Virus record (IMG/VR): IMGVR_UViG_3300037875_000261
DNA: 58,821 nt
Reading direction: 5' to 3' (one strand)
From: a virus
The notes under the pieces are model-generated. The model worked only from the letters and a program-made list of their open reading frames with translations. It made no database searches and was not told the DNA's origin. Position numbers and translations under genes: made by a program. Each line of letters starts with the position of its first letter. Positions within the stretch are counted from its first letter, which is position 1. This document shows, piece after piece, positions 1 through 58,821 of the stretch.

Positions 1-1
1 T

Positions 2-33
2 CATGTCGTTGCCTTTCGTGGTGGTGGTGGTGG
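2..33 (-). repeat. CA-rich start-associated leader, copy at the window edge. It belongs to gene 58507..58788 if the contig is circular.
   Basis: Minus strand reads CCACCACCACCACCACGAAAGGCAACGACATG. It is identical to 58786-58821. Confidence 0.8.
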
Positions 34-35
34 AC

Positions 36-67
36 GGGCGACGCGCGCTGTCTGTCACGCGTCGCCC
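36..67 (-). terminator. GC-rich hairpin downstream of gene 94..471
   Basis: Perfect 10-bp stem gggcgacgcg (36-45) / cgcgtcgccc (58-67) with a 12-nt loop. It is followed on the minus strand by the CA-rich leader rather than a U-tract. Confidence 0.4.
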
Positions 68-93
68 CGCGCAGTCGCTCTTGACTCCGCCGT

Positions 94-471
94 TCAGATC
101 GCGGCCTTCTCGCACCGCCAGCAGTCGCACCCGTCAACGTGCTCGACCGCGTGATCGACTCGGGTGACGTTCCTGCCGTTGACCTCGAAGCGCGGGTCGG
201 CGGCGATCGCCGCCATCATGTCGTGCTCCCAACTCGCCGCGCCGTGCGGCGCGTTGCACCACATCACGACGGCGGTCGGCTTGCGCCTCGTTCCGTTGCC
301 GCTCTCGGCAACCTGATACCCAGGCTCGCGATAGTGGAAGGAATGATATCCCCCCGACTTCTGGAAGCCCGCCTTGCGCAGCAGCGTCGATACCTGCCTC
401 GCGATCGCGATACCCTTCGCCTGCGTGCGATCGAACCTCGCGCGCTTCTGCCTGATCGTTTCCTTGCTCAT
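94..471 (-). CDS. hypothetical early protein (125 aa)
   Basis: ORF-track frame 94..642 trimmed to the internal ATG at 471 (MSKETIRQ...), which sits directly after a perfect leader copy. The C-terminus has CDCWRC. No family recognised. Confidence 0.6.
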   Translation of the reverse strand: MSKETIRQKRARFDRTQAKGIAIARQVSTLLRKAGFQKSGGYHSFHYREPGYQVAESGNGTRRKPTAVVMWCNAPHGAASWEHDMMAAIAADPRFEVNGRNVTRVDHAVEHVDGCDCWRCEKAAI

Positions 472-497
472 GTCGTTGCCTTTCGTGGTGGTGGTGG
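469..497 (-). repeat. CA-rich start-associated leader copy
   Basis: CCACCACCACCACGAAAGGCAACGACATG fills the entire 26-nt gap between the stop at 498 and the ATG at 471. Confidence 0.85.
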
Positions 498-1307
498 TTA
501 CGCCGCAGCCCTGTAGTGCGGTCGCTTGAAGAAGGCGAAGTGCGCCTTGTCGTCCGAACGCGTGAGCGTCGCCCTGAGCGTCAGAGTCATGCCCTTGAGT
601 TGCGGCTCGCGGTCGCCGCCGTACTCGTCCTCGCGGATCCACTCGACCGAATCGAGCAGGCTGCTCGGCGCGTTGCCGTTGGCGAGCCAGACGCCGTACT
701 CAGTCTCGACCTTGACCGTGACGCGCCAGTTCGTGCCGTAGTCGCTGAACGTCTCCTTCGCCGACACGATCGTGCCGGTGAACTCGACGCGACCCTCGGG
801 CGCGTCGGTCGTCGCCTCGGGGTGCGCGATGTCGTTCGCGATCTTCATCGCGAGCGCGATCTGCGCCTCGCTGATCGAGCCGTACAGCGCGACCTTGTCG
901 GCGAGGTCGCGGCTGATGCGGTGATCGGCCTTGAGCGCCTTGGCGAGCTTCGGTCGGCAGGCGAGGAACGAAAGACCGGCAGCGGCTTTCGCGTCGGCGA
1001 TCGCCTTGCGCTCGGCGACCTTCTTCGCTCGCGCCGTGTCGCCGCGCTTCAACTTCTGGGCGTACGCCTTCGGGCTGTACGTCGTCTTCGAGTTGCGGGT
1101 ATCAGCGCCGTGACACTTGAAGCAGATCCCGCCATCGACGTACCAGGGACCGTAGCCCGAGCCGCCGCAGCGGTAGCACGGCGTCGGCACGACGATCTCG
1201 CCGGTGCCGGTCAGGTACGCGGCGAGCGCGTCGGGGTGCATCTCTTCGAGATACGCGAGCCCCTGCTCGTCGGTGCGGATCGGCTTGCGTTTCGTGGTGG
1301 TGGTCAT
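498..1307 (-). CDS. hypothetical protein with zinc-ribbon-like CxxC..CxxC (269 aa)
   Basis: Frame 498..1445 trimmed to the ATG at 1307 (MTTTTKRKP...) after a perfect leader. Motif CYRCGGSG...CFKCHG. Confidence 0.6.
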   Translation of the reverse strand: MTTTTKRKPIRTDEQGLAYLEEMHPDALAAYLTGTGEIVVPTPCYRCGGSGYGPWYVDGGICFKCHGADTRNSKTTYSPKAYAQKLKRGDTARAKKVAERKAIADAKAAAGLSFLACRPKLAKALKADHRISRDLADKVALYGSISEAQIALAMKIANDIAHPEATTDAPEGRVEFTGTIVSAKETFSDYGTNWRVTVKVETEYGVWLANGNAPSSLLDSVEWIREDEYGGDREPQLKGMTLTLRATLTRSDDKAHFAFFKRPHYRAAA

Positions 1308-1335
1308 GTCGTTGCCTTTCGTGGTGGTGGTGGTG
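1305..1335 (-). repeat. CA-rich start-associated leader copy
   Basis: CACCACCACCACCACGAAAGGCAACGACATG. The coding start ATGACCACCACCACGAAACGCAAG repeats most of the motif again. Confidence 0.85.
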
Positions 1336-1345
1336 AGAGTGTCGA

Positions 1346-1723
1346 CTACCTGATCAGGTACTCGACCCCGCCGAAGTCGACGGCTGTGTAGTCCATCGCA
1401 AGCTCGCCAGCGGCCTGCTCCCAGTCGATGCAGTTCATCGGCCACGTCGCGGTCGAGTCGAACATGCCGCAGTCCTCCGCAATCTCGCGGGCGTAGTCCT
1501 CGAAGTACGAGAACCGGATCAGCGCCTCGCCGTACTCCCAGTCGTCGGCGTAGCCCGAGGCGTCAGCCTCAAGCCCGTCGAGCGCGACGAGTTCGGCGTC
1601 GTCTTCGTAGTCGCGATCCTCGCCGAGTTCGTTCAGGAACTCGATGCGCTCGATGACGTCGCGCGAGTCGATCACGTCGAGGCGGTTGTGGATCTGTTTC
1701 GGGGCCGTGTAGAGGTTCGTCAT
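1346..1723 (-). CDS. acidic protein, ArdA-like anti-restriction candidate (125 aa)
   Basis: Very Asp/Glu-rich. The C-terminal pattern YFEDYAREIAEDCGM...IDWEQAAGELAMDYTAVDFGGVEYLIR resembles the ArdA family C-terminus from memory. ATG follows the leader. Confidence 0.45.
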   Translation of the reverse strand: MTNLYTAPKQIHNRLDVIDSRDVIERIEFLNELGEDRDYEDDAELVALDGLEADASGYADDWEYGEALIRFSYFEDYAREIAEDCGMFDSTATWPMNCIDWEQAAGELAMDYTAVDFGGVEYLIR

Positions 1724-1751
1724 ATCGTTGCCTTTCGTGGTGGTGGTGGTG
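1721..1751 (-). repeat. CA-rich start-associated leader copy
   Basis: CACCACCACCACCACGAAAGGCAACGATATG. Confidence 0.85.
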
Positions 1752-1762
1752 TCGGTCGCGGA

Positions 1763-2266
1763 TCAGTCGACGGCGAGCGGCCAGAAGCCGAAGTCAGCGC
1801 CGTCGCCTTCGTGCGACCCGAAGTAGTGACCGGCGGGCGCGAACTCTTCGAGCAGGTCGAACAGCTCTTCGAGGTCGTAGGCCGACGCGTCCGTGGTGTT
1901 GTAGTCGTCGCCGTGCGTCGCGACGCGACGCTCGATCTCGCCGAGCCAGATGTCCTCCCTGCCGTGCTTGAGCGGGTTAGCGTCGGGGCCGAGGCTTCGA
2001 CGCTCGCGCAGCACGTCAAGCTCGGACAGGAATGTCGGCACCAGATCGTTCACGTTCATCGTGCCCGTCGAGATGCTACCGGCCTCGGCGACAGTCCGCA
2101 GACGATCGCGCTCGAACTCGATCTGATCCTTCGCGAACCGGACCGACCCCGGCGAGAAGATGTGCGCGAGCAGTCCGCCGCGACCGGCGTGCTTGCGTGC
2201 GTCTTCGATGTACTCCTCGCATACGCGGATCGTGTCGAGGATCTCGTTGCGTTCTTCGTTCGTCAT
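1763..2266 (-). CDS. hypothetical acidic early protein (167 aa)
   Basis: Complete ORF with ATG after a perfect leader. No family recognised. Confidence 0.6.
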   Translation of the reverse strand: MTNEERNEILDTIRVCEEYIEDARKHAGRGGLLAHIFSPGSVRFAKDQIEFERDRLRTVAEAGSISTGTMNVNDLVPTFLSELDVLRERRSLGPDANPLKHGREDIWLGEIERRVATHGDDYNTTDASAYDLEELFDLLEEFAPAGHYFGSHEGDGADFGFWPLAVD

Positions 2267-2294
2267 ATCGTTGCCTTTCGTGGTGGTGGTGGTG
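2264..2294 (-). repeat. CA-rich start-associated leader copy
   Basis: CACCACCACCACCACGAAAGGCAACGATATG. The gap to the upstream stop at 2300 is 33 nt. Confidence 0.85.
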
Positions 2295-2299
2295 TCGGT

Positions 2300-2524
2300 C
2301 TACGCGTCGGGGTGGTCGACGTAGATGTCGGATCCCGCGTCGTAGTACCGGCCCTCGATCGGGTCGTAGTACAGCACGCGGCTGTCGGCAAACTGGAACG
2401 GACCCTCAAGCCCGGCCCGCCTCGGATGATCCGTCGTGTCGATGGGGCGCACGCTCGTACCCTGCGCCCGAAGCGCACGTTCGAGGAGCGCGGCGTGCTC
2501 GGTTCTGTTCGTGGAGCTGGTCAT
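2300..2524 (-). CDS. hypothetical small protein (74 aa)
   Basis: Frame 2300..2701 trimmed to the ATG at 2524 (MTSSTNRT...). Degenerate leader CCACCACTCCAAACCAAAGGACCACGACATG. Confidence 0.5.
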   Translation of the reverse strand: MTSSTNRTEHAALLERALRAQGTSVRPIDTTDHPRRAGLEGPFQFADSRVLYYDPIEGRYYDAGSDIYVDHPDA

Positions 2525-2564
2525 GTCGTGGTCCTTTGGTTTGGAGTGGTGGTTGGTGAGGGCG

Positions 2565-2747
2565 TTAGCGGGGTGCCGCGTCTGCGGCGGACTGCTTCGC
2601 AGCTTCGAGCTTCTCAACGAGCTTGTGTGCGCGGAGGGTCTTCGGGTTCCAGTGAGCGCGGTTGCCCATCGGGGGGGCGGACGGGCAGGCGGCTTTCGCA
2701 AGTGAGATGAGCTTGGCGAGGTCGCGCTGGGTGATCGTGATGTTCAT
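2565..2747 (-). CDS. hypothetical small protein (60 aa)
   Basis: Frame 2565..3002 trimmed to the ATG at 2747 (MNITITQRD...). Degenerate leader CACCACTTCAAACCAAAGGACACCAGCCATG. Confidence 0.45.
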   Translation of the reverse strand: MNITITQRDLAKLISLAKAACPSAPPMGNRAHWNPKTLRAHKLVEKLEAAKQSAADAAPR

Positions 2748-2778
2748 GGCTGGTGTCCTTTGGTTTGAAGTGGTGATG

Positions 2779-3048
2779 TCAGCGACCGAGGTGACCTCGG
2801 CGAGAGTCGGCGGAACGCTGGCTCGCGGTGAAGCTGCGCTTCTTGCCGTTGAGCCAGTAGAACTTGTATCCGCCCGGTGCGTCACTCGGGGCGAGAGGGT
2901 GGAGACGGCTGCGGACAGTGAGCCAGCAGGCGCTGTAGACCTGAGTGACGGTAACGTAGCCGCCGGGGTTCGCGAGGCTCGCGGCCCTGGCGCGGTAGTC
3001 AACGTCCTCCCAGGAGGAGCAGTCGAGCGAGATGTCGATCTGGTGCAT
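2779..3048 (-). CDS. hypothetical small protein (89 aa)
   Basis: Frame 2779..3279 trimmed to the ATG at 3048 (MHQIDISLD...). Leader ACACCACCACCACGAAAGCAGAAAGATCATG. Confidence 0.45.
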   Translation of the reverse strand: MHQIDISLDCSSWEDVDYRARAASLANPGGYVTVTQVYSACWLTVRSRLHPLAPSDAPGGYKFYWLNGKKRSFTASQRSADSRRGHLGR

Positions 3049-3083
3049 GATCTTTCTGCTTTCGTGGTGGTGGTGTTGTCGGT

Positions 3084-3305
3084 CTACGCGTTGCGGCCAG
3101 CCTCGAAGGCTGCCGCAAGCGCGTCGCGCAGACCCGAGACGCCGACGTCGTGGAAGTCGAGCGAGTCGCTGTTGCGGGTTTCGAGCGTCTCGATGAAGAG
3201 GTGCTCGGCGGCGATCTCCGCGAGGAGCGCGTCGGCGGGGGCGGTCGGGCGTCCCGGCAGCAGATGGGTCGCGGCCCATGTCGTGGTGGTGGTGTTGTTC
3301 GTCAT
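3084..3305 (-). CDS. hypothetical small protein (73 aa)
   Basis: Frame 3084..3458 trimmed to the ATG at 3305 (MTNNTTTTTW...) after a perfect leader. Confidence 0.55.
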   Translation of the reverse strand: MTNNTTTTTWAATHLLPGRPTAPADALLAEIAAEHLFIETLETRNSDSLDFHDVGVSGLRDALAAAFEAGRNA

Positions 3306-3333
3306 GTCGTTGCCTTTCGTGGTGGTGGTGGTG
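3303..3333 (-). repeat. CA-rich start-associated leader copy
   Basis: CACCACCACCACCACGAAAGGCAACGACATG, directly downstream (minus sense) of box copy A. Confidence 0.85.
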
Positions 3334-3362
3334 AAGAGGTCACGCGCTACCGTCGCTCTTCC
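3333..3362 (-). repeat. 30-nt intergenic box, copy A
   Basis: Plus strand reads gaagaggtcacgcgctaccgtcgctcttcc. Identical to 3448-3477 and 29/30 with 4378-4407. Confidence 0.85.
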
Positions 3363-3364
3363 AC

Positions 3365-3389
3365 GCCGCCCCGGAGCTACGGGGGCGAC
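3365..3389 (-). promoter_or_regulatory. covarying stem-loop, copy A
   Basis: Minus strand GUCGCCCC-CGUAGCUCC-GGGGCGGC. The one non-Watson-Crick position is a G.U pair only when read on the minus strand. Confidence 0.45.
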
Positions 3390-3447
3390 CTGTCCGGTCG
3401 GCCAGTCGGCCAGTCGGATCCGTGGTGGTGGTGGTGATGGTGATGGC

Positions 3448-3477
3448 GAAGAGGTCACGCGCTACCGTCGCTCTTCC
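3448..3477 (-). repeat. 30-nt intergenic box, copy B
   Basis: Identical to 3333-3362. It lies about 115 nt away, so copies A and B form a tandem unit. Confidence 0.85.
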
Positions 3478-3479
3478 GC

Positions 3480-3506
3480 GCCGCCCTCTTAGCCATGGTG
3501 GGCGAC
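3480..3506 (-). promoter_or_regulatory. covarying stem-loop, copy B
   Basis: Minus strand GUCGCCC-ACCAUGGCUAAGA-GGGCGGC. Same position relative to the box as copy A. Confidence 0.45.
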
Positions 3507-3510
3507 CTGT

Positions 3511-3534
3511 CCGGTCGGCTGTCCCGGCACTGCC
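3511..3534 (-). repeat. 24-nt intergenic repeat
   Basis: ccggtcggctgtcccggcactgcc is identical to 4267-4290. Confidence 0.8.
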
Positions 3535-3538
3535 TCAG

Positions 3539-3570
3539 CCCCGGTCGCACTCGCTGTCGAGTGGCCGGGG
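3539..3570 (-). terminator. hairpin just downstream of the kinase-like gene
   Basis: ccccgg-tc-gcactcg-ctgt-cgagtgg-ccgggg. There is no clear U-tract. Confidence 0.4.
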
Positions 3571-3583
3571 TGGGCAGTCCTTT

Positions 3584-4063
3584 CTAGTAGTTCTCGACGA
3601 CGGTCACCGTGTCGGCGTGGGGCGCGATGATCTCGAAGGACGTCGAGATGTCGCGGCCCTTCGAGCGCACGATGTGCTCGGGCACGACTCGTTCGCGGTT
3701 GGCGTTTCGCTCAAGCGCGACCCGCATCGGGACCTTGACGTAGAGAAGCTCGATCTCGTAGCCGAAGCTCTTCGCATCGTTCATGCGTCGAAGCATCTTC
3801 TCCGAGTTCGTCCCCGTGCCGTCGACCAGCATGTCGGTGCCGCTCGCCATCGTCTCGGCAAGCAGCGCCTCGGCCTTGTCGTTGCTCCAGGCATGGAGCA
3901 CGCCGGGATCCTTCGGATCGTAGTCGGGGTGCGCCTCTTTGAAGAGGTCGGGGTCGATGACGGTCATGCGTCCGATCGGGTAGCGGTCGTTCGCGACCGT
4001 GCTCTTGCCCGAACCGGGCAGGCCCATCGTGAAGATCGCGAGCGGGGTGGTGGTCGTGTTCAT
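3584..4063 (-). CDS. P-loop kinase, zeta-toxin / AAA_33-like (159 aa)
   Basis: Walker A MGLPGSGKST, then IDPD and LVDGTG. Its size and layout are typical of zeta-toxin-like nucleotide/sugar kinases. Leader CCACCACCACCACCACCAAGGAGAACGACATG. Confidence 0.65.
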   Translation of the reverse strand: MNTTTTPLAIFTMGLPGSGKSTVANDRYPIGRMTVIDPDLFKEAHPDYDPKDPGVLHAWSNDKAEALLAETMASGTDMLVDGTGTNSEKMLRRMNDAKSFGYEIELLYVKVPMRVALERNANRERVVPEHIVRSKGRDISTSFEIIAPHADTVTVVENY

Positions 4064-4093
4064 GTCGTTCTCCTTGGTGGTGGTGGTGGTGGT

Positions 4094-4231
4094 CTAGCTG
4101 CGAGCCTCTTCGGCCATCGCGTCGAGTCGGTCCCTCGGGATGTCGGCCCATGTCGGGCGGCTGGCGAGGAACGCGGCGCGGATGTCTTCGACTTTGGTAG
4201 TCGTGTTGACGATGCGGATGGTGGTGGTCAT
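4094..4231 (-). CDS. hypothetical small protein (45 aa)
   Basis: Frame 4094..4303 trimmed to the ATG at 4231 (MTTTIRIV...). Leader CACCACCACCACCACGAAGGAGACAGCGATG. Confidence 0.4.
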   Translation of the reverse strand: MTTTIRIVNTTTKVEDIRAAFLASRPTWADIPRDRLDAMAEEARS

Positions 4232-4266
4232 CGCTGTCTCCTTCGTGGTGGTGGTGGTGTTGTTCG

Positions 4267-4290: not shown

Positions 4291-4305
4291 GAGGCCCCGT
4301 CACCT

Positions 4306-4331
4306 GTCACCCCTTAGCTATGGGGGGTGAC
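4306..4331 (-). promoter_or_regulatory. covarying stem-loop, copy C
   Basis: Minus strand GUCACCCC-CCAUAGCUAA-GGGGUGAC. The stem sequence differs from A and B but pairing is kept. The loop keeps the UAGCU core. Confidence 0.45.
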
Positions 4332-4377
4332 CTGCGCGGGGCTGGGTTCACGGTGTCGCTCGGGCCGTGCCCGAGAT

Positions 4378-4407
4378 GAAGAGGTGACGCGCTACCGTCG
4401 CTCTTCC
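4378..4407 (-). repeat. 30-nt intergenic box, copy C
   Basis: gaagaggtGacgcgctaccgtcgctcttcc, one mismatch to copies A and B. Confidence 0.8.
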
Positions 4408-4583
4408 CGTCGCCGCGTTTTCGTGCGCGGCTGCCCTCGGCTGTTGCTCTCCGGTGGGCGTTTCAGATTGTCAAAGATCTCGGGGGGCCGTCGCGGCCAG
4501 CCTCGCCGGGCGCATCACTGCGAGCCGGACTGGCGACAATACGGGAGGGGTGCGCCCGCATTCAAGGTTTCCGGGGATTGTTT

Positions 4584-4620
4584 CCCCGTATACCCCCCAC
4601 GGCCCTATACGGGGGCTTTT
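4584..4620 (+). terminator. hairpin plus T4 tract with no obvious plus-strand gene upstream
   Basis: 9-bp stem ccccgtata (4584-4592) / tatacgggg (4606-4614), then gcttttcc. Confidence 0.3.
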
Positions 4621-4662
4621 CCGCCCGTGGAGGCCCACGCGGGCGACCTCGCCCACATCGGC

Positions 4663-4705
4663 CCCCGGCCCCCGATCGCGCGAGGGACGCGGTCGGGGGC
4701 CGGGG
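4663..4705 (-). terminator. 13-bp perfect inverted repeat downstream of the last late gene
   Basis: ccccggcccccga (4663-4675) / tcgggggccgggg (4693-4705) with a 17-nt loop. It lies about 120 nt after the stop at 4827. Confidence 0.4.
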
Positions 4706-4722
4706 TCGGGGTCGGGGTCGGG
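4695..4722 (+). other. G-run array ((GGGGTC)n), a G-quadruplex-type motif
   Basis: Plus-strand G-runs GGGGG, GGGG, GGGG, GGGG and GGG separated by 1-2 nt. Confidence 0.5.
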
Positions 4723-4826
4723 CCGACAGGGAGTGAGGCGCGCGTCCCACCCGCAAGGTCGCGGTCATCCCTTGGGCAAGAGAGGCTGACCGCTACCAAA
4801 AACGAGACGCGCGCCCCGTGATCCCC

Positions 4827-6204: not shown

Positions 6205-9200
6205 TCAGAAGCTCTCGTTCAGGAGGAAGCGACGCGCGCTCGTCATGTCGTGCAGAGTCGCGGCGATCACGCGAACGCGGGTGCGGAAGGAATGAATGCG
6301 AACGTCGTACGTCGTGTCGGGACGCGTGGCGACGATCCTGAACTGGATGTCGACGAACGAGTAGAGCCCCGGCTTGAACTCGCGCCAAGCCTGCCAGCCG
6401 TCGCTCGCTCCGGTCGTGTTGATCCGAGCCTCGATACCGATCGTCGCGTTCGCCGTCTCGTTCGGCAGCACATGCGTCGGGCCTTCCCACGTCGCGCGTA
6501 CCGCGAGCGGGTCGCCCCACATCCCGGAGGCCGCTCCCCAGTGGATCGGACTGATCTGCTCCGCCGCGACCGACGCCTCGACGTAGCAGCGGCGGGGCTG
6601 GCTCTTGTGATACGCGACGCGCGTGCCCGTCTCAGCCGTCGTGTACGTCGCGCTCACTCCCGCGCTGAACTCAAGCCACCCGTCGGCGTGACGTTGCAGA
6701 TTCGATAACGCGGGATCGCCCGTCGGCGGGGCGCTGTCGGTTTTCCACCCGTTCGCGTAGGTCGACCACTCATTGTCGCCGAACTCGCCGGGCCATCGAC
6801 TTGTGTCCGTCAGCACGTCGGGCGTGAACGTGATCGTCGCGTGCTCGCTGTACTGCCCGAGCGTATTGCGTGCGCGGAAGTACAGGTCACCGATCGACCA
6901 GTCACTCAGCGGCGGAGACTCCGATGTACCGGGCTGGGAAACGAACACCACCGGGGCCGCGATCCATCCGCCGCGCCTGATCTCGACGACGTATGTGTCG
7001 CGGTTCGCGGTCGCGGGGATCCCCCACGAATAGATGACCTGATCGCCCTGCATGTCGGCTGCGACGTTCGTCGGCACGTCGGGATACGGGCCGATCCCGA
7101 CGACCGTGTGCGTCGCGCGTCCGCAGTTGTCGGCGATCGCGAACGCCCCCCGATGCGTCACGGGCTGGATCGCGACGTCGATCGAGCTACCGGCGACGGC
7201 GGCGTCGAGCGGTACGCGCGCGCTGGTCGCGTTTCCTTCTACCGTGCGTGCGATCTCCCACTGCGCCCCGTCCTCTCGCGTGAGCACGTTCGTCCGCGCG
7301 TGATGCACGACCGTCGCCGGGTCGTGCGCCCACGAAACGAACAACACGGCGCGAACACCGCCGGGGATGGCGACGTATCTGTCGTCGGTCGTGACACCTC
7401 GCACGCGACCGGGCGTGACCCTGTCGTCGCCTGGGACGTCGTCGCCGCCGACGCCGCTCTGAATGAGTTCCGTGACGGTGATCGGGTCGACCACGTCGTC
7501 GACGTAGATCGACGCGTTGTACTCTATGAACTGAATGGACTTCGTCATGTCGACGAGCTGCTCGGTGCTAGTCACCTCGACGAGAAGCTCGTCGCCGTTC
7601 CTGACGAGGATGTACGCGTCGTCCTTGCTGGCCTTGGCGGGCAGCGCCGTCCAGCCGCCGGTCGTGTCAAGCGTGACGGTGGTTCCCGCCGCGTACGATC
7701 CGCCGCCCGTGGTCAGCTTCGCCTGATGACGGTGCGACGCCTCGCCGACTTGAATGAACAGATAGTATTCGGACACGCCGTCGATCACGAAGTCTCGATC
7801 GAGCGTGGCCGTCGTCGTGCTCGCCGCGTCAGACAGAATCCGACCGGATACGCCGCGAGGAACGATGTCGTGCGCGATGCGCGCGATGTCGCCGGGCTCG
7901 ACGGCGATCGAGTCGACGGCCATCTTGAAACGACCCTGCCTGATCAGGTCGTTGTTCACGTTCAGCGAGAAGTTCCCGTGACGGATGATCTGCGCCCGAT
8001 CCGTGACTCCCCAGACGAAGGTCTGATCCCTGCGCAGATCGACCAGCGACGCGGGGTTCTTGATCGACTTGTGATTCACGATCTCGATCGCGCGTTCGTG
8101 ACGGTCGTCGGCGTCGAGGAAGCCGATGTCGATCGAGTTGTCTCGCTGCTCCGGTCCCTCGTACTCGATCTCGAACGACCCCTTGATGTACGAGCCCATC
8201 CCGACCTCGACGTCGGGCGACCTCGGGTGCGAATACTTGACGGAGATCACCGAGCCACGCTGTACGGGAACCGCGCGACCGACCGCACATATCTCGATGA
8301 GCGCATCCCACGCCGTGCGAGTCTCGTCGAAGATGCCGTTGAGCGCGAAGCGGTGCTGGCCCGTCGTGTAGAACGCGCCATTCGCCTCGGCCTCGGGCGT
8401 GACGATTCCGTCGGCGATCAGGTACTCGGACCCGCTGACGAATTCTTCCCAGGGCTCCGTTTCGTCCGTGCGATCCCACCAGCACTTGACAACCCACTGG
8501 ACCGCCTCCTGCACGATGTCGTGAATCTCGTACCCCGTACCCTCGGGCGAGTCGAGATCATTCGTCAGAAGATCGACGCCGCTCGCGGGCCAGTTCTCAA
8601 GGCGCACGAATCCGCCGATCCTGAACTCCTCCGGCAGCACGTCGCCGAAGCGCGGCAGCCCGGTCGTCTGCGATATGCGCGCGATGTACATCCACAGCGC
8701 ACCGCGCACCTCACCAGTGACGGGGTCGGTCGCCTCGACGCCTTGGGAGAACCAGCGAATGTCGTCATGGATGTATTCGACGTTCGTCGTGTGCTCGACC
8801 TTCGGTCGCCCGTCCCACACGACCTCGTCGCAGTAGTCGGCCCACGCCCGGAACGCGAGCAGGTCGACGCGGTCGATGCTGTAGGTCGTGCCGAGCCCGT
8901 ACTCCTTCGACAAGATCAGGTCGAGCGCGCACCACGCCGGGTTCGACGAGTGACTGCGCGCGATCGTCGGCACCGCGATCGACTCGCCGTCCCAGACGGG
9001 GACCGCGCGACCCTTGAGCAAGAACGAAAGCTCGGGCTGCGTCGTGTTGAGCTGCTCGGTCGCGCGAATCTTCACGCCGACGAGCGTCGAGTTGGGATAC
9101 CGAAGCTCGACGTCGAGCACGCTGACCACCGCCTCGACCTCAACCTCGTCGACTGTCGACGCGTGCGTCGAGTCGACGTTCGTGCGAAGCGCCTCGACGA

Positions 9201-23739: not shown

Positions 23740-23822
23740 GTGCTTCTATCCTCGTTTCGTATGCGGGTGGATAAAAGCGGGGGGGGCGAGGAGCACTCGC
23801 CCCCCCCGCGTCGCGTATCGGA

Positions 23823-24257
23823 TCAGACGGAGAACGTCGCGTCGTTCGCGGACGTCATGTCCACCGAGCCATCCTTCGGGCTGGACAGCACGAACGACGC
23901 GCTGATAGCGGTCGTGCCGCCTGCCCCCGAGTTGTAGACGGCGCGGATGAACTCCGGCTGCTGTTCGAGGTCGATGACGCCCCAGAAGATCGTGTCGTCG
24001 TCGGTCGCCGTTACGGTGATCGACGCGCCCGCGATCGGGTTCGCCTCGTACGCGGCGTCGACGTCCGTCGCCGACATCTCGATCGTGAGGGTGCCGTCGG
24101 CGGATGCGCCGACGGTGCCCGTCGTGACGACGACCATGCAGCGCCGCCACCCGACGGTCGAGAAGCCTGCGCCCTCGACCTCGGTGGATAGCGCGATGAC
24201 CTGGGGAGAGATCGACGCGCGGACGTTCCTTGTTGAGCCCGGATCTGTGCGGACCAT
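23823..24257 (-). CDS. beta-rich protein after the capsid gene, a possible decoration protein (144 aa)
   Basis: Strong AAGGAG RBS. Position only. Confidence 0.5.
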   Translation of the reverse strand: MVRTDPGSTRNVRASISPQVIALSTEVEGAGFSTVGWRRCMVVVTTGTVGASADGTLTIEMSATDVDAAYEANPIAGASITVTATDDDTIFWGVIDLEQQPEFIRAVYNSGAGGTTAISASFVLSSPKDGSVDMTSANDATFSV

Positions 24258-43780: not shown

Positions 43781-44931
43781 TTCTTCGCGGCCTCGATCCC
43801 GGCGGGGCCGTAGTAGCGGAATCCCTGGACGGCGCGAAAGTGCCCGCCGAAGCCCGCGTTGAAAGCCTGCGACCGCGCGTTCGCAATGTGGGAGGAGACG
43901 TACGACCTCGCCGACTTCACCTTGTTCGCCCCGTATAGCATGGCGGAAAGCTGACGCCATCTTCTGTCGCGGCGAAGCGCCGAGCATAGACCGGGGTGGC
44001 TGGTGTGGAAGATCGTCGTGACCCTTCGACCGGCGAGCCGTCCCCCCCCGTCCGCCTGCATCTGGCAGACGTGGTTCAGGAACTTCATCCCGACGCCCGC
44101 GCCCTGCCACTCGGGCATGACGACGAGGCGACATCCCCTGGCCTCGACCCTCCTGCCCCTGTTCTTCGTTCCGATGCCCATGAAGCACACGGGCTCGTCG
44201 TCCACGAATCCGCCGTAGCAATGGGCCGCAGGCATGATCGGCAGTTTCAGATAGTGATGCGGCTCAAAAAGCGGCCACAGCTTCCAGTCGACCTGCCGAA
44301 TCTCAAGCTCAAAAGCTGGCCTTCGCCGAAGTGACCCCCTTGCGAACTTCGCGGTGGCGGTATCGAAGATCCAGTCGGGTTCGAGCCAGTCCAGAATGTC
44401 GTAGTGGCAGGAGAGCAGGACGCACTTGCCGCCCGTTCGCCTCCACGCCTTGCCGAACGCGAGCGCGCCGAACTTCGCGACCTGTCGGTCGACGACCGAC
44501 GTGAACTCGTCGACGACGACGCGGTCGGGGGCCTCGGAGATCACCCTCGCGAGATCGGCCCTGAACTTCTCCCCGTTCGACAGGACCGCGTAAGGCCGCA
44601 GCCAAGTTGGTACCGACCCGAGCCCGACGGCGGACAGCGCGCCGGTCACGGCGTCGAAGTTTCCGGCGGGCGCGATCTCGTCGACGATGGGCGAGCCCGC
44701 GTTCCACGACCCCTCGTACATCGCGCCCTCGCCGAGAACCTGTCGACCCATGCTGGTCTTCCCCGAGCCCGACGGGCCGACGATGACGCCGAGCCCCCAG
44801 TCGTCGTCGTCGATGTCGAGCGACGCGTCGAGGCTAAAGTTCGCGCCGGACTCCACGTTGAACAGCGACTTCACGCGCGACGCCCGATAGGTATCGTAGT
44901 CCGCGCACTCGTTGCGCACGGAGATGTTCAC
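43777..44931 (-). CDS. ABC-type ATPase fused to a GNAT-like acyltransferase domain (384 aa)
   Basis: Walker A GPSGSGKT, ABC signature LSNGEKF, Walker B VVVDEF, H-loop CHYD. The C-terminal VVMPEWQGAGVG is the GNAT acyl-CoA loop (Q/RxxGxG/A). The GTG start overlaps the ParB stop. Confidence 0.65.
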   Translation of the reverse strand: MNISVRNECADYDTYRASRVKSLFNVESGANFSLDASLDIDDDDWGLGVIVGPSGSGKTSMGRQVLGEGAMYEGSWNAGSPIVDEIAPAGNFDAVTGALSAVGLGSVPTWLRPYAVLSNGEKFRADLARVISEAPDRVVVDEFTSVVDRQVAKFGALAFGKAWRRTGGKCVLLSCHYDILDWLEPDWIFDTATAKFARGSLRRRPAFELEIRQVDWKLWPLFEPHHYLKLPIMPAAHCYGGFVDDEPVCFMGIGTKNRGRRVEARGCRLVVMPEWQGAGVGMKFLNHVCQMQADGGGRLAGRRVTTIFHTSHPGLCSALRRDRRWRQLSAMLYGANKVKSARSYVSSHIANARSQAFNAGFGGHFRAVQGFRYYGPAGIEAAKK

Positions 44932-45518
44932 GTCGTCACCACCCGGCAGTCCCGACCGCCGTCGCGAAGCTCCGCGAACACCTTCTCCTGCTCGGCCTCG
45001 TCGGCGCAGATCACGATGACGCCGTACTGCTCAAGGTACTTGTCGTCGGGTACGTCGCCCGGCGGGTCGAGACTGTCCGACCCGCCGATCTTCATCAGCG
45101 CCAGATCGTCGACCGACCACCCGATCAGCAGATCCCCGTCGTCGTCGTCGCGCATGTCGAACAGGAAGTCGGGGAGAACGTCGCTATCCCAGGTCGCCAG
45201 TTCGGCGGTGCGGTTGTCGGCGATGGCGAACGCGGTCGCCTCGCGGTCGGACTCGTCGACGACGATCGCGGCGATCTCGGTCCAGCCCAGGTTCCTCGCG
45301 GCCTCAAGCCTTCCGCTCCCCGCGCGGACCACCATACCCCGCTTCTGAACGACGATCGGGCTGCGCTGCCCAAACTTCGACAGCGACGCCTCAATCGCGC
45401 CGATGTTGCGCTCGTTGTGCAGCCGCGCGTTCGCGGGGTCGGGAACCAGATCCCCGATCGGAACCGCCAGCGCCCTCAGGTCGCCGACGATACGCGCGGC
45501 GTTCTTCCTCGTCTCCAT
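44928..45518 (-). CDS. ParB-like nuclease-domain protein (196 aa)
   Basis: LVPDPANARLHNERNIGAIEASLSKFGQRSPIVV...GSGRLEAARNLGW is a typical ParB/Srx N-terminal domain. No methylase domain is attached. Confidence 0.7.
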   Translation of the reverse strand: METRKNAARIVGDLRALAVPIGDLVPDPANARLHNERNIGAIEASLSKFGQRSPIVVQKRGMVVRAGSGRLEAARNLGWTEIAAIVVDESDREATAFAIADNRTAELATWDSDVLPDFLFDMRDDDDGDLLIGWSVDDLALMKIGGSDSLDPPGDVPDDKYLEQYGVIVICADEAEQEKVFAELRDGGRDCRVVTT

Positions 45519-45805
45519 CACTTGCCCTTTCGTTGGTGGGCCTTCCAGCCCGATTGCGTGAGCCAAAACTTCGCCGCGTCGATCCACCCGTCGTCTTCGC
45601 TCATCGCGTGGGCGTAGAGCTTGCGGGCGACGGCGACCGTCGCCTTCATCATGCCGACCTCGATGTCGTTCGCGTAGTGCCTGCCGATGTCGGCGAGCCT
45701 GACGTCGAGGTAGAGCGCGATCTCGGCGGGGTTCATGCCGGTCGCGGCAAGCTGCTGGATTCGATCCCGAGTCTCCTCGGAGAAGGCGTGCTCGTCCGTG
45801 CCCAT
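45518..45805 (-). CDS. small HTH protein (95 aa), TerS- or regulator-like
   Basis: Frame 45518..45865 trimmed to the ATG at 45805. GMNPAEIALYLDVRLADI is HTH-like. The AAKFWLTQSGW tail resembles some small-terminase/HTH_23 proteins. Confidence 0.45.
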   Translation of the reverse strand: MGTDEHAFSEETRDRIQQLAATGMNPAEIALYLDVRLADIGRHYANDIEVGMMKATVAVARKLYAHAMSEDDGWIDAAKFWLTQSGWKAHQRKGK

Positions 45806-46132
45806 AGTTGTCCCTCGATGATGGCGGGGTGGCCCCCCGATAGGTTGCTCGTCGATCACCACCACGGGACCGCGCGAGGCGAACCGGGGGGCCGATGCGC
45901 GTGCAGACTGTAGTCAACGCCGACGGAAACACGCGCGAGAAAATCTCTTGAGATAAATGAAGGGTGACTAGTATCTCGGGCGCAGGCGGAGGCGTGCGCG
46001 CGTTGATACTTGTACGCGCGGACGTACGCGCCTCCGCGCAGCGCGCCCGGGGGATTCGTCACCCTCCCTGTTGAGGGCCAATTTTTTCGCCCCCCCGTCC
46101 GTCGCGGGCGACCGAGCGCGCCCCCCCCCCGT

Positions 46133-46181
46133 GGTGCCCCTGCGGTGCCCCCGTGGTGCCCCCCACGCGGTGCCCCCCCCC
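46133..46181. repeat. four phased iterons GGTGCCCC(C)n
   Basis: Starts at 46133, 46144, 46155 and 46169, giving spacings of 11, 11 and 14 nt. On the minus strand these are G4 to G11 runs. Confidence 0.75.
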
Positions 46182-46220
46182 GTGGGGCGTAGGAGGCCCT
46201 GTGAGGCCTCTGTAAGCCCC

Positions 46221-46246
46221 CGTGCTGGACTTTGGGCGGAAACGGG
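46221..46246. repeat. 26-nt element, copy 1
   Basis: cgtgctggactttgggcggaaacggg matches 57205-57230 at 24/26 positions. Confidence 0.8.
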
Positions 46247-46276
46247 GGCCGCGACCCGTATCCGCCCCGGAAGCCG

Positions 46277-49200
46277 TTAGGCGCGCTCTGAGGGCGTCGT
46301 ACGGCCAGCCCCCGCGAGGGGGTCGCCGACGTCGCTCGCGTCCGCCCCTGCCGGTGCGCTCGACCGCATCCTGAACGCGAACCGGGCGACGCCCTTGCGG
46401 GTCGTCTCGACATCGACGTCGATCCCGGCTTCGCGGAGGAAGCCGAGCCCGTCGATCAGCCTCGCGCCGAGTTGCCCCGCGCGCAGCCAGATCGACAGGG
46501 TGCCCGGCGCGTTCAGATCCTTCGCGGCTGACCGAACGATCCGCGCGAGGTGCGACGCGCGCATCGGCCCGAGGAACATCTCACGCTTCGCCGTGTCCTC
46601 GACGAACTTGCCGTCGTACGCGTGCCGCTGCTCGCTGCCGGGGATCTGCTCGGCCACCGATCGACAATGCGCGAACGCGTACCTGATCGCCGTCACCGAA
46701 AGCTCCTCCTGAATCAACGACTGCAACGCGTAGCACCCGAGCGACGAGAACGCGTCGCGCCACAACGGGTCGACCTCTTCGAGATGCGCGGCCTGCTCCT
46801 CTTCGGGGAAGCCCGCGACCCACGCGAAGTACATCAGCCGCAGGTAGCGCGACAGCCGACCGATGCGCGTGTTGCCGAATATCTCCTCGATGTTCGCGCC
46901 GATGCCCTCGCCCCACTGCTCGTCGAGTTCGAGGGCGCGAGCGCAGCGACGCGTCGCGTCGGACCAGAACAGGTCACGCGACTCGATGATCGCCTCGGCC
47001 AACGCGTCGTCAGCGCGCGGCGAACCGAGACGCTGGTGCGCTTGGGAACACTGGAGCGTGAGCATCCGACTCGCGAGTTCGGACTTGCCGTCGTGGATCG
47101 GCTCGATGCCGTTCATCAGCAGCGCACCGCACACGCGCTCGATCACCGTGCCCGTGTCGCTGTTGCCCTTGCGCTTCTCGCGGGCACCGAGGTTCGTCGC
47201 TTGCAGTAGCGTGCCGCGCAGCGCGCTGTTGACGTCAGCCGACTCGCGGTTGTCGTCGATCGTCAGCATCTCGGTCGACAGTCGCGAGATCATCGCGGCA
47301 CTCGTCGGCACGCTCGAACTCTTGCGACCGTTGACGAGCACCGACACGGCGTCGACCGCCCGCGTCTTGCCCGACGCGCTGCCGCCCTCGATGCGAACGA
47401 TGGGGGCCGCGCCGATCTTGCGGATGACGGGCAGGCAGACCAGCCAGTAGATGAGCACCAGCCGGTCGCCGTCCGAGAGCGACGTCCACTTGAAGCAGGT
47501 CAGCGCGCGCTCGATGCCGCCGCCCTCCTCGACGTACTCGAACGGCATGAAGTCGTGACCCGCGACCGCCGGTACGCGGGCCTCGGCCATGCGCGTACGC
47601 TCGACGGTGCCGACCCCGATCTTGATGATGCGCCCGGCGAGATCGCCGGTAGGGAAGAAGATCGACCCGTCCTTGCCGACGTGCGACCACGACACGTCAG
47701 CCGCCTCGCGCGATGCGTGTTCGAGGAAGTAGATCGCCGCCGCGATATAGGGGCGGTGCGATGACTTGTCCTTCGACAGACCCGACGCGCGATAGATCAG
47801 GCTGCGGAACCTCGGCTGCATTCGATCGACGCCGACGGCGACGCGCTCGTTCCCTCGTACGAGGTACAGTTCGTCGGGGGTTCTGAACGGCGTGTATCCC
47901 ATCGAGATCGTCACGGTCTGCGCGACGTGCTTGCCGAGCGCCTCCTCGTCGGCCTTGTTGTCGACCGCCCGCATGACTGACTGACGCACGGACGCGTATC
48001 GGTCGTGCTCGTCGCCGACCGCGTGGCCGGGCGCTGGCGGTGCGGCTGGCGCGTCGCTGTCGCCCTCGGGTGCGGCGGGTGCGGCTGGCTGCGAGTGCGC
48101 GACCTCGGGCGGCAGCAGATTCAACGTCACGGCGCTCGCCTCGACATCGTTCGCGATCTTGGACTCGTCGTCCTTGCGCGCGGGAAGCACCGACTGCTTG
48201 CGGACCTTCGAGATCCGCTGAAGCACGTCGGCCTTCGATACGCTCTTGCCCGCCGCCTTCGCGATCGCGCCTGCGTAGAGCGCACGCATCATTCGCTCGT
48301 CGACGTGAGCCGCGAGCACGATCGACTCGGCGAACAGGTTCAGACGCGTCAACGCGTCGGCGGTCATGTCGATGTCGCGCGCGTCCTCGTCGACCTGAAG
48401 CTCGACCACGTCGCGGCCAGCCTTGCGGATGGCGTCGAGCTTGCCCGCCGCGCCCGCGCCCTCGATCGCCGCCCACTCGGCGGCGTCGATCTTCGACGCC
48501 GCGATCTGCGCGTGAACCCATTCGCGGTTATCGGCGTCGCACTCCTCGACGATCTCCTTGCGTCGCTTCGGCTCGGCACGCTCCAGCTCGGCGAACGCCT
48601 TCTCGCCGAGAGACTTCATCACCTCGTCACGCGCGGCGAGTTGATGCGCGCCAAGAGGTAGCGTGAGGATCGTCACGGCGAGGCCGCGCCTGACGAGCTT
48701 CATTCCAGCGCGACGCGCGCCGTGGTTTCCGCTGCCCGACAGTTCGTTGTCGAACAGGATCTCGACGCGACCGATGCCGTGCTCGCCGCACTTGCGAACG
48801 AAGCGTTCGAGGTCCGTCTTGTTGAAGTTGATCGTGACCGGCGACACGACCGGGACGCCGAGAGCGGAGAGCGCGACGGCGTCGGCAACTCCTTCGGCGA
48901 CGACGACGGTCGTCGACTCCGCGAGCACCGGCTCGTTGTACAGGTGGTCGTTCGTGATCGACTTCGAGATGTAGGGTCGCGTGTCGCTGTGGACCGGGAG
49001 CTTGTAATACTTCGACGGCGTGCGACCGTCGCGCTTCGGGGTCCACTGCGTCGACCTCCCGATGAGGTAGACCGCGCGGCCCATCTCCAGATACGGGAAC
49101 AGCACGCGACCCTCGAACGGAGTCACAAGCTGCACGCCGCCGCCGGGGTAGAACCCGACGCCCGACGACCTGAAGTCGCTCATCGACCCGGAGCCCGACG

Positions 49201-49741
49201 ACTCGCGCACGATCGCCGGAAGTAGCGGGCTCGGCATGTAGCCGATGCCGTACTGCTCGACGGTCGCGCGGTCGAAGCCCCACCGATCCTGTACCCACGC
49301 GAGTACGTCGGGCGACGCGAGCAGGTGATCGTGAGCGGCCATCGCGAAGAGATGCACAACGTCGAGCGCGTTGTCCGCGCCGACGCCGTTCGGCTCGTAC
49401 GGGATGGCGTACTGCTCGCAGAGCCACCGCACCGCGTCGCGATGCGACTGCGACGTGGACTGCGACGACCCGCGCGACGGCATGCCGCCGCCGGTCAACG
49501 CGTACTCGGCGAACTGGATCAGGTCGCCGTTGATCCCGTCGCACGCCCGGCAGATCCATCGCCCTGTGTGCGTGTTGATCTGTAGCGCCTCGCGCGATGT
49601 CGATTCGTGGCAGAGCGGGTCGCATAGCAACTCGCTGCCAGCCTCGCGAACGATCGGGATGTTCAGTCGCGCGAGCAGATCCTTCGCCGTGAGGATCTCC
49701 CGAAGTTTGTCGTACACGCTCTGCTTTCTCGTTGTCGTCAT
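46277..49741 (-). CDS. DNA primase (CHC2 zinc finger plus Toprim) fused to a P-loop NTPase domain (about 1154 aa)
   Basis: CDPLCHES...GRWICRACDGINGDLIQF is zf-CHC2. VVVAEGVADAVAL is Toprim. Walker A IEGGSASGKT occurs in the C-terminal half. Start set at the ATG at 49741 (MTTTRKQ...). The ORF track extends to a GTG at 49777. Confidence 0.75.
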   Translation of the reverse strand: MTTTRKQSVYDKLREILTAKDLLARLNIPIVREAGSELLCDPLCHESTSREALQINTHTGRWICRACDGINGDLIQFAEYALTGGGMPSRGSSQSTSQSHRDAVRWLCEQYAIPYEPNGVGADNALDVVHLFAMAAHDHLLASPDVLAWVQDRWGFDRATVEQYGIGYMPSPLLPAIVRESSGSGSMSDFRSSGVGFYPGGGVQLVTPFEGRVLFPYLEMGRAVYLIGRSTQWTPKRDGRTPSKYYKLPVHSDTRPYISKSITNDHLYNEPVLAESTTVVVAEGVADAVALSALGVPVVSPVTINFNKTDLERFVRKCGEHGIGRVEILFDNELSGSGNHGARRAGMKLVRRGLAVTILTLPLGAHQLAARDEVMKSLGEKAFAELERAEPKRRKEIVEECDADNREWVHAQIAASKIDAAEWAAIEGAGAAGKLDAIRKAGRDVVELQVDEDARDIDMTADALTRLNLFAESIVLAAHVDERMMRALYAGAIAKAAGKSVSKADVLQRISKVRKQSVLPARKDDESKIANDVEASAVTLNLLPPEVAHSQPAAPAAPEGDSDAPAAPPAPGHAVGDEHDRYASVRQSVMRAVDNKADEEALGKHVAQTVTISMGYTPFRTPDELYLVRGNERVAVGVDRMQPRFRSLIYRASGLSKDKSSHRPYIAAAIYFLEHASREAADVSWSHVGKDGSIFFPTGDLAGRIIKIGVGTVERTRMAEARVPAVAGHDFMPFEYVEEGGGIERALTCFKWTSLSDGDRLVLIYWLVCLPVIRKIGAAPIVRIEGGSASGKTRAVDAVSVLVNGRKSSSVPTSAAMISRLSTEMLTIDDNRESADVNSALRGTLLQATNLGAREKRKGNSDTGTVIERVCGALLMNGIEPIHDGKSELASRMLTLQCSQAHQRLGSPRADDALAEAIIESRDLFWSDATRRCARALELDEQWGEGIGANIEEIFGNTRIGRLSRYLRLMYFAWVAGFPEEEQAAHLEEVDPLWRDAFSSLGCYALQSLIQEELSVTAIRYAFAHCRSVAEQIPGSEQRHAYDGKFVEDTAKREMFLGPMRASHLARIVRSAAKDLNAPGTLSIWLRAGQLGARLIDGLGFLREAGIDVDVETTRKGVARFAFRMRSSAPAGADASDVGDPLAGAGRTTPSERA

Positions 49742-58506: not shown

Positions 58507-58788
58507 TCAGTCTCCTCCTTCTTCGGTGGGGGGTCCGGGCGTCAGGTGCATCTTCAGCACGGCGATGATCTCGCGCCCGGCGTCGGTCGACGGGTTCACG
58601 TCGTCGCCAGCCTCGACCGACGCGATCAGCGCCGGGTCGGCGGACGCCGCGCGCAGTCCGCTGATGACGACCTGTCGATCAGTGGGCATGCCTTGAAGCG
58701 CGAAGTCGGCGTCGTCTCTCGTCTCGAACACGCTGCCCGTGCAGCGCCAGAGATAATACTCGGGCTCGATGTGTACATGGTTCTTCAT
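58507..58788 (-). CDS. hypothetical protein (93 aa)
   Basis: Complete ORF. The ATG is preceded by the perfect leader that runs off the window end and reappears at 1-33. Confidence 0.6.
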   Translation of the reverse strand: MKNHVHIEPEYYLWRCTGSVFETRDDADFALQGMPTDRQVVISGLRAASADPALIASVEAGDDVNPSTDAGREIIAVLKMHLTPGPPTEEGGD

Positions 58789-58821
58789 GTCGTTGCCTTT
58801 CGTGGTGGTGGTGGTGGACGG
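58785..58821. repeat. 37-nt terminal identity with positions 1-37
   Basis: tcatgtcgttgcctttcgtggtggtggtggtggacgg occurs at both window ends. Confidence 0.9.

Follow-up and report, generated by a model that had tools for sequence, protein, structure and literature searches.

A conserved GC-rich dyad downstream of a primase-helicase gene, a candidate replication origin in an uncultured tailed phage

The window and its primase-helicase locus

We analyzed the IMG/VR virus record IMGVR_UViG_3300037875_000261 (58,821 bases, hereafter the window, meaning the whole stretch of DNA) and in particular the non-coding gap that follows its primase-helicase gene on the minus strand. This gap spans 471 nt (45806-46276), from the primase stop codon (46279-46277) to the ATG of the next gene at 45805. 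An earlier note on this DNA, which had proposed a replication origin here, let the region start at 45866, inside the gap. The window is the complete or near-complete genome of an uncultured GC-rich tailed phage, with genes for a tape-measure protein, tail protein J, a portal and a major head protein, nearly all of its genes being carried by the minus strand. Its nucleotides 1-37 are identical to nucleotides 58785-58821 and the contig circularises, with one copy of a repeated leader element lying within the overlap. A search of GenBank phages returned zero matches to the window DNA or to the primase protein, and a search of 185,579 reference bacterial and archaeal genomes returned no relative and no prophage or linear-plasmid copy. 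No DNA polymerase gene was found among the part of the window open reading frames (ORFs) that was scanned, and the earlier note listed none either. The family to which this phage belongs (GC-rich phages of about 60 kb) has no cultured member.

The primase-helicase gene (46277-49717, minus strand, TAA stop) encodes a protein of 1146 amino acids as called in public data, with an N-terminal DnaG-type zinc-binding and RNA-polymerase domain in the first 400 residues, a central P-loop (GSSSGKT) and a C-terminal module. It matched the PHROG 47 DNA primase family (E-value 1e-47), and its N-terminal part matched DnaG in the PDB (4E2K, E-value 3e-10) as well as TIGR01391 (E-value 2e-7). A Foldseek search with the AlphaFold model (pLDDT 78.8) retrieved DnaG (2AU3) with an E-value of 9e-12, the best neighbors outside DnaG being, weakly, the PriRep1 (7PDS) and PriRep5 (7OLA) structures; in this model residues 1054-1118 form a terminal helix-helix-helix-beta-hairpin. 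Across the primase family the Walker A motif is invariant and the C-terminus (residues 1049-1112), a putative DNA-binding part, has many invariant columns, while more distant homologues carry D5_N and DUF5906 tags. The first gene after the gap (45518-45805, minus strand) encodes a helix-turn-helix-like protein of 95 amino acids that matched PHROG 12540 (unknown function, E-value 2e-5) and weakly HTH_38 in Pfam, with no match in NCBIfam or the PDB. It is followed by a gene for a ParB N-terminal-domain protein (44928-45518, minus strand), the first gene of a ParB/ABC-GNAT/formyltransferase cassette.

Anatomy of the gap

We checked every feature of the gap against the sequence, which confirmed its anatomy. 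Two GC-rich hairpins directly follow the primase stop on the minus strand (46193-46267), neither with a U-tract; both pairings that had been described are present (46216-46223/46242-46249, and GAGGCC..GGCCTC at 46193-46210), and arms of 13 nt (46234-46246/46255-46267) give a stronger alternative. Next comes a G-run array (46121-46181, minus strand), made on the plus strand of four GGTGCCCC(C)n units, which start as reported at 46133, 46144, 46155 and 46169 (spacing 11, 11 and 14 nt) and end in C-runs of 4, 5, 6 and 9 nt, together with a C10 tract (46121-46130). On the coding strand the array reads G9-CACC-GCGT-G6-CACC-AC-G5-CACC-GCA-G4-CACC-AC-G10, and only two further copies of GGTGCCCC occur in the 58.8-kb window (22513 and 57166). 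The C10 and C9 (46173-46181) tracts exceed every other homopolymer of the window in length, and the 7-mer GGGGGGC is present in 6 copies in the gap, against a maximum of 5 in 200 coding controls. The C7 (46090-46096) and T6 (46082-46087) tracts also lie where the earlier note put them, forming G7 then A6 on the minus strand (46082-46096); many relatives likewise have an A5-A9 run at the corresponding position with respect to the core.

The small inverted repeats that had been listed separately, namely a 9-nt pair (45986-45994/46029-46037, 100% complementary) and the palindrome ATCTCTTGAGAT (45943-45954), do exist but are pieces of one extended imperfect dyad of 184 nt (45921-46104, centered near 46012), which was delineated by palindrome alignment and DNA folding. 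Its GC-rich core (45980-46065) contains GCGCGTAC twice, an inverted ACGCGCGC and the 9-nt pair GCGGAGGCG/CGCCTCCGC. The A/T-richer patch noticed earlier is real: 45937-45976, which includes ATCTCTTGAGAT, has the lowest GC content (0.35) of all 40-mers in the genome, a value shared by one other, corresponds in alignments to the CT-rich tract of relatives and is a candidate unwinding element. The distal flank (45828-45916) holds a -35-like TTGACT (45916-45911, minus strand), two partial inverted copies of the array unit on the plus strand (CACCACGGG at 45860-45868 and AACCGGGGGG at 45881-45891) and a near-copy on the minus strand (GGGGGGCCACC at 45838-45828), after which comes the ribosome-binding site GAGGGA; by themselves, these matches are not above chance.

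To assess the tract lengths, which had been flagged as possible assembly artefacts, we compared the window with four further assemblies from JGI, Logan and ENA samples (JGI 3300037842, SRR12937912, SRR12937894 and ERZ4231633). The 511 nt at 45790-46300 are the same in all five assemblies except for one single-nucleotide polymorphism in the A6 run. The tracts are thus not artefacts and their lengths are stable; a tendency to slippage, as had been suggested, is plausible but is not reflected in any length variation among these assemblies. Logan contigs of three assemblies break inside the gap, in the window phage or in relatives, one of them within the array, and we attribute these breaks to the G-runs and palindromes, which would disrupt short-read assemblies here.

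A single-copy dyad is conserved after the primase gene

We gathered relatives of the primase from viral, metagenome and Logan contigs (protein identity 50-62%; loci are designated L and complete genomes G) and examined the DNA 3' of each stop codon. About 20 of about 25 relatives carry at this place a module whose parts are a purine- or G-rich arm (the A5-A9 run is often present), a GC-rich core in which purines and pyrimidines largely alternate (GCGCACGCGCGCACGCGCGCGTACACGCGTGCGCGTGCGC in L019 is an example) and in which words such as CGCGCGTAC are conserved, and a CT-rich arm; the module is alignable in 16 relatives. We built a profile from nine relatives, and it matched four others that had been left out of it with E-values of at most 1e-8, and the window at one place only (46002-45939, E-value 3e-4). 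A second, sequence-only model (R1), used as a cross-check, likewise matched the window only in the gap (46014-46091, E-value 1e-3; 45937-46002, E-value 3e-4) and gave its sole match in the complete relative G002 after the primase gene. The module is therefore present in a single copy per genome in the window and in G002. In 14 of the 19 relatives that carry the module, no alternating purine-pyrimidine run elsewhere in the fetched locus is longer than the one in the module. The window core (45980-46065) is a less regular homologue of this alternating core; the window has six alternating runs of at least 13 nt, none of which is in the gap.

Across the family the module is an extended imperfect palindrome of 125-184 nt, with 62 of 83 positions Watson-Crick paired in the window dyad. 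We compared folding with that of shuffled sequence and obtained a mean z-score of -3.7 over 17 family members (lowest -9.7), the window dyad scoring -4.6 on both strands. The outer arms differ wholly in sequence between relatives and keep their complementarity, and the mispairs (36 G-T, 67 A-C and 108 others) bear no RNA-type wobble signature. The equal folding of both strands and the small number of G-T mispairs argue for a symmetry at the DNA level, as of a symmetric protein assembly or a cruciform, rather than for a sense-strand RNA hairpin. We relied on these per-sequence dyad statistics in place of alignment-based covariation; a MAFFT alignment of the module, given to RNAalifold, yielded neither usable covariation (covariation term -0.06) nor a usable consensus, the quasi-repetitive core being aligned ambiguously. 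The 5' arm of the dyad is purine-rich and the 3' arm pyrimidine-rich whichever strand is read; we considered this order as a sign of strand asymmetry and rejected it, since any dyad with a purine-rich 5' arm reads alike on both strands.

Some relatives have additional short elements near the module. A palindrome, TTCCACGTGGAA, lies between the primase stop and the module in L005 (7574-7585) and L009 (near 7137-7148), with a variant in L181 (5987-5998), and local repeats were seen in L183 (CGTCCGG), L016 (GAGGCGGATC, three copies) and L010 (GGCTGTGGCGCC, four copies). Separately, a promoter-like arrangement, GGGTA(G/C)GCTT followed after 10-11 nt by TAnnAT, is located about 40-60 nt upstream of the next gene in L015-L023, L031 and L182; the gene behind it encodes an AAA_23 (SbcC-like) ATPase, and its spacing is unfit for sigma-70.

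A similar core in an unrelated primase family

We searched viral contigs with a 14-mer from the core (GCGCGCGTACACGC) and filtered the results with the module profile. The 14-mer by itself is unspecific, occurring in at least 120 stretches, and seven loci passed the profile with an E-value of at most 1e-3. In L050 the same kind of core is found 100 nt after the stop codon of a primase of 839 amino acids that belongs to PHROG 35358, as opposed to PHROG 47 for the window; in L154 it is 1.2 kb from another primase and in L151 1.4 kb from a DnaB-like helicase. Two loci are from a microvirus, with major capsid and pilot protein genes and a GC-rich alternating island (L037, 405-481; L135, 2-50). This island is located in an intergenic region rich in A/T, with a strong sigma-70-like promoter just downstream of the island, and the L135 contig ends inside the island.

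We then fetched 25 relatives of the L050 primase, whose nearest cultured relative is that of Synechococcus phage S-H1 (51% identity), and evaluated 18 loci. In 16 of these, a single 6-mer, present in both orientations, is repeated 7-14 times within 300 nt downstream of the primase stop (average of 3-4 in coding controls), the word itself varying by lineage (CGGGAC, GGAACA, CGTAAC, GTAGAC or CGTAAG). In 15 of the 18 loci these 6-mers are grouped around an alternating purine-pyrimidine run (11-47 nt) that has an A/T- or CT-rich tract behind it. By its sequence organization, the region is a textbook iteron origin, built like the origins of Staphylococcus aureus pathogenicity islands (SaPIs), and it thus provides an origin context for the alternating-GC core that is independent of the window's family. 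As in the window, the region is non-coding from the primase stop onward and the alternating core precedes an A/T- or CT-rich tract; unlike in the window's family, where most members have none, there are 7-14 lineage-varying 6-mers, and the two primases are unrelated. The iteron origin after the primase of S-H1 relatives is unannotated (L155-L179; MK105819.1, 17684-17846, which corresponds to L180, 4093-4255), and these loci would be a good system for linking iteron words to residues of the primase C-terminus.

The G-run array is specific to the lineage

The earlier note had described the array as helically phased iterons with a strong G-quadruplex-type motif on the minus strand. The motif is indeed canonical (46121-46164, four runs of at least G3 with loops of 1-7 nt). 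The genome has three such motifs, and no other lies on the coding strand, which here is the non-template strand when transcription reads through from the primase gene. The phasing is weak, as the 11/11/14 spacing merely tracks the varying lengths of the G-runs. Nor are the iterons conserved, the array being absent as an array from relatives. What recurs is simpler: the word GGGCACC occurs singly in the gaps of relatives, with an enrichment of about 3-fold, L009 repeats the order of the window with GGGCACC, G8 and A7 in succession, and G- and C-rich outer arms, some with runs of 8 or more, are found again in relatives. The array therefore looks like a lineage-specific expansion of the G-rich arm. 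It could favor an R-loop or a G-quadruplex upstream of the unwinding tract, or it may be tolerated slippage.

We consider that the array is probably not a binding site for the initiator or for ParB. A conserved reader in the primase C-terminus leads one to expect a conserved site, an expectation that fits the core words (CGCGCGTAC) and not the array. Binding by ParB, as had been proposed, was confronted with 80 other phage loci carrying the ParB/ABC-GNAT cassette: none has GGGGCACC repeats within 1.8 kb upstream, and 3 of the 80 have a G- or C-run feature of any kind. We accordingly rejected the array as a part of the ParB cassette. The conserved dyad is also present in relatives without a ParB gene. 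As a separate observation, the cassette is found at the extreme contig end in many viral contigs of 34-38 kb (L196, L200, L202-L207, L209-L212, L215-L218 and others), which suggests that it adjoins the genome terminus in those phages.

Interpretation as a replication origin and competing explanations

We lean, with moderate confidence, towards the gap being the replication origin of the phage or a loading site for its own primase-helicase. The position directly after a gene whose product joins a DnaG-type primase to a P-loop domain, and the presence of the genome's lowest-GC 40-mer inside the module, speak for it; the reading gains support from the single-copy dyad kept after the primase, with its selected symmetry, from the like core in the iteron origin of an unrelated family and from the precedent of SaPI origins, and the reproducible tract lengths also count in its favor. 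The proposal of an origin beside the primase is thus supported by comparison, whereas binding of primase or ParB to the array is not. The data partly support the origin reading, in which the working part would be the conserved dyad and the A/T tract rather than the G-run "iterons".

We infer the functional steps of the following model. Under negative supercoiling, the core could extrude as a cruciform or flip to Z-DNA. The primase-helicase would recognize this core through its conserved C-terminal domain, probably in the form of two assemblies of opposite orientation. The A/T-rich tract, which lies on one side of the core center, would then open, the P-loop domain would be loaded and the DnaG-type domain would prime synthesis for a host polymerase. 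The GGGGCACC/G-run array may stabilize an R-loop or a G-quadruplex, and could in this way aid opening or pause transcription before the origin. In a more speculative version, which we hold to be rather unlikely, the origin would be driven by structure and not by protein-binding repeats, as a non-B DNA hub opened by read-through transcription and supercoiling; it would comprise a G-quadruplex- or R-loop-prone arm, a Z-DNA- or cruciform-prone dyad and an adjacent unwinding tract. If this version were true, the alternating-GC core would be a general, undescribed origin component shared by unrelated primase families and microviruses. Even aside from it, the alternating purine-pyrimidine core beside primase or helicase genes in unrelated phage groups suggests a recurring and undescribed component of origins, and a located origin would offer a handle for replication assays, for shuttle vectors and for the self-loading of a DnaG-type primase/P-loop fusion.

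Several findings weigh against an origin at this place. The window core is degraded: its alternating runs reach no more than about 12 nt, and its profile E-value is only 3e-4. The complete relative G001 (IMGVR_UViG_3300031965_000037, L001, 55 kb) has no recognizable module anywhere: a sulfatase gene starts 3 nt after its primase stop, and scans of this genome for an 18-nt alternating run and for dyads revealed no module. Several other relatives also lack the module in the fetched flanks, and most family members have no excess of repeated words over coding controls, the exceptions being the window, L019, L020 and L184. The likeness between the cores of the two primase families is of low complexity and could be convergent, and the loci of the second family were found through a 14-mer taken from the core itself. 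The matches of the C-terminal half of the primase-helicase to SaPI PriRep1 and PriRep5 and to the NrS-1 helicase in Foldseek were non-significant (E-values of 0.1-0.35). GC skew says nothing about an origin in this genome, because nearly all genes are on one strand, and the genome holds a second large non-coding hub (4304-4826).

The main rival to the origin reading is that the gap is an operon boundary only, at which the hairpins and the dyad would stop the early/replication operon and a promoter would restart the accessory/packaging genes, the array being incidental or acting as RNA. It would account for the gap dividing the replication module from a different block of genes, for the two GC hairpins after the primase stop and for the -35-like TTGACT in the distal flank, and it fits with the conserved promoter-like word of relatives (GGGTAGGCTT, 10-11 nt, TAnnAT) between the module and the next gene and with the next gene being fused onto the operon in G001, which has no module. 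However, no sigma-70 promoter was called in the gap, and a terminator scan of 45000-47000 gave none on the minus strand, its sole call being on the plus strand (46062-46077 plus T6). Dyads of 130-180 nt with a conserved primary sequence exceed the size and constraint that terminators need, there is no excess of G-U wobble and no strand preference, and lineage-varying iterons around a like core in a second primase family would be left unexplained; we therefore regard a mere operon boundary as unlikely. A reading in which the hairpin is itself the functional product, as an RNase III processing site or a non-coding RNA in the polycistronic transcript, appears very improbable. A long imperfect hairpin with a strong folding z-score, situated between genes in transcribed DNA, would suit it, but the antisense strand folds equally well or better, the wobble signature and usable covariation are lacking as described above, and no Rfam family matched, the lone hit being a chance plant microRNA hairpin (E-value 0.4). 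A tRNA scan of the sequence found nothing.

That the primase-helicase, the neighboring helix-turn-helix protein or ParB binds the four GGTGCCCC(C)n units as iterons appears improbable. The absence of the array from relatives whose putative recognition region in the primase C-terminus is highly conserved, and the results for the ParB cassette loci given above, stand against four tandem units about one helical turn apart beside an origin-like core, and against the enrichment of GGGCACC in some relatives with the same order in L009. The partial inverted copies in the distal flank are roughly symmetric to the array across the dyad, yet they are within chance (by a rough estimate, one 9-nt inverted match per 490 nt), and the units differ chiefly in G-run length, which points to slippage rather than to a fixed protein site. 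We find it very improbable that the gap is a site for packaging, end processing or recombination, such as a cos or pac site, a telomere-resolution site of the N15 telRL type or a phage nuclease site. The window closes on itself elsewhere with the 37-nt overlap, the contig ends of near-complete relatives are away from the module, G001 and G002 are classed with terminal repeats elsewhere, and the reference genomes yielded no prophage or linear-plasmid copies. On the other side, the contigs of three Logan assemblies stop inside the gap, and the element is palindromic with CGCG/GTAC words, which we take to resemble the TACGCGCGTA center of N15 telRL. Telomere resolution in particular was rejected, as the center of the window dyad (ACAAGTATCA) is not palindromic and as no protelomerase match was obtained with the large window ORFs that were scanned, which are a part of all ORFs. 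A loose resemblance of the 95-amino-acid downstream protein to a small terminase subunit was also discarded, no terminase family being matched in Pfam, the PDB or NCBIfam.

Other non-coding features of the window

The hub at 4304-4826 is an alternative candidate for the origin or for the genome ends. It has sigma-70-like promoters on the minus strand (TTGAAT..TATTGT; TTTGACA) and a (GGGGTC)n G-quadruplex motif on the plus strand (4695-4731). A 32-nt element (TCATGTCGTTGCCTTTCGTGGTGGTGGTGGTG, plus strand) is present in about 10 copies within 1-4260 and at 58785-58816; read on the minus strand, it consists of CCA repeats, then GAAAGG, then ATG, and immediately precedes small early genes. In the head-gene region, G8, 13 nt and C8 form a strong hairpin (23779-23807) between ORFs ending at 23745 and starting at 23823, which is probably a terminator.

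Comparison with known origins

Transcription-primed or R-loop origins are represented by RNA II of ColE1 and by oriF and oriG of T4. The window array shares with these G-rich non-template DNA upstream of an unwinding region and an upstream operon that reads through, an arrangement conducive to a lasting RNA-DNA hybrid; the analogy holds for the array alone, with no sign of an RNA primer, an RNase H site or a dedicated origin promoter in the gap. In P4 a single protein, alpha, serves as primase and helicase, binds the origin through its C-terminal domain and has its target repeats close to its own gene; we liken the P4 alpha/ori/crr system to the window in this pairing of a multifunctional protein with a nearby element. 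P4 uses octamer iterons (TGTTCACC) in two separate regions, and we know of no long GC-rich dyad or G-run array described for it.

The origins of SaPIs are immediately downstream of rep, are read by the C-terminal winged helix of the helicase and have repeats near an A/T-rich melting region (PMC9371898); their 6-12 penta- or hexanucleotide iterons flank an A/T-rich center on either side. The counterpart of these iterons in the window would be four tandem units of 8 nt or more and two or three degenerate copies. The window differs from the SaPI arrangement in several respects. Instead of at least two opposed iterons on each side of an A/T center, it has an array on the primase side only, made of G-runs. 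In its family the conserved element is a GC-rich dyad, iterons being absent from most relatives, and its protein of about 1150 amino acids has a DnaG-type primase domain, unlike SaPI Rep. An A/T-rich region is common to both, that of the window (45937-45976) lying beside the center of the dyad and not at the center. The fusion of primase and helicase in the window protein is also that of SaPI PriRep5, and, as in the pri-rep-ori arrangement of SaPIs and other phage-inducible chromosomal islands (PICIs; Rep1, PriRep5), the candidate site is directly downstream of the gene for the putative initiator-helicase, a placement shared by about 20 relatives.

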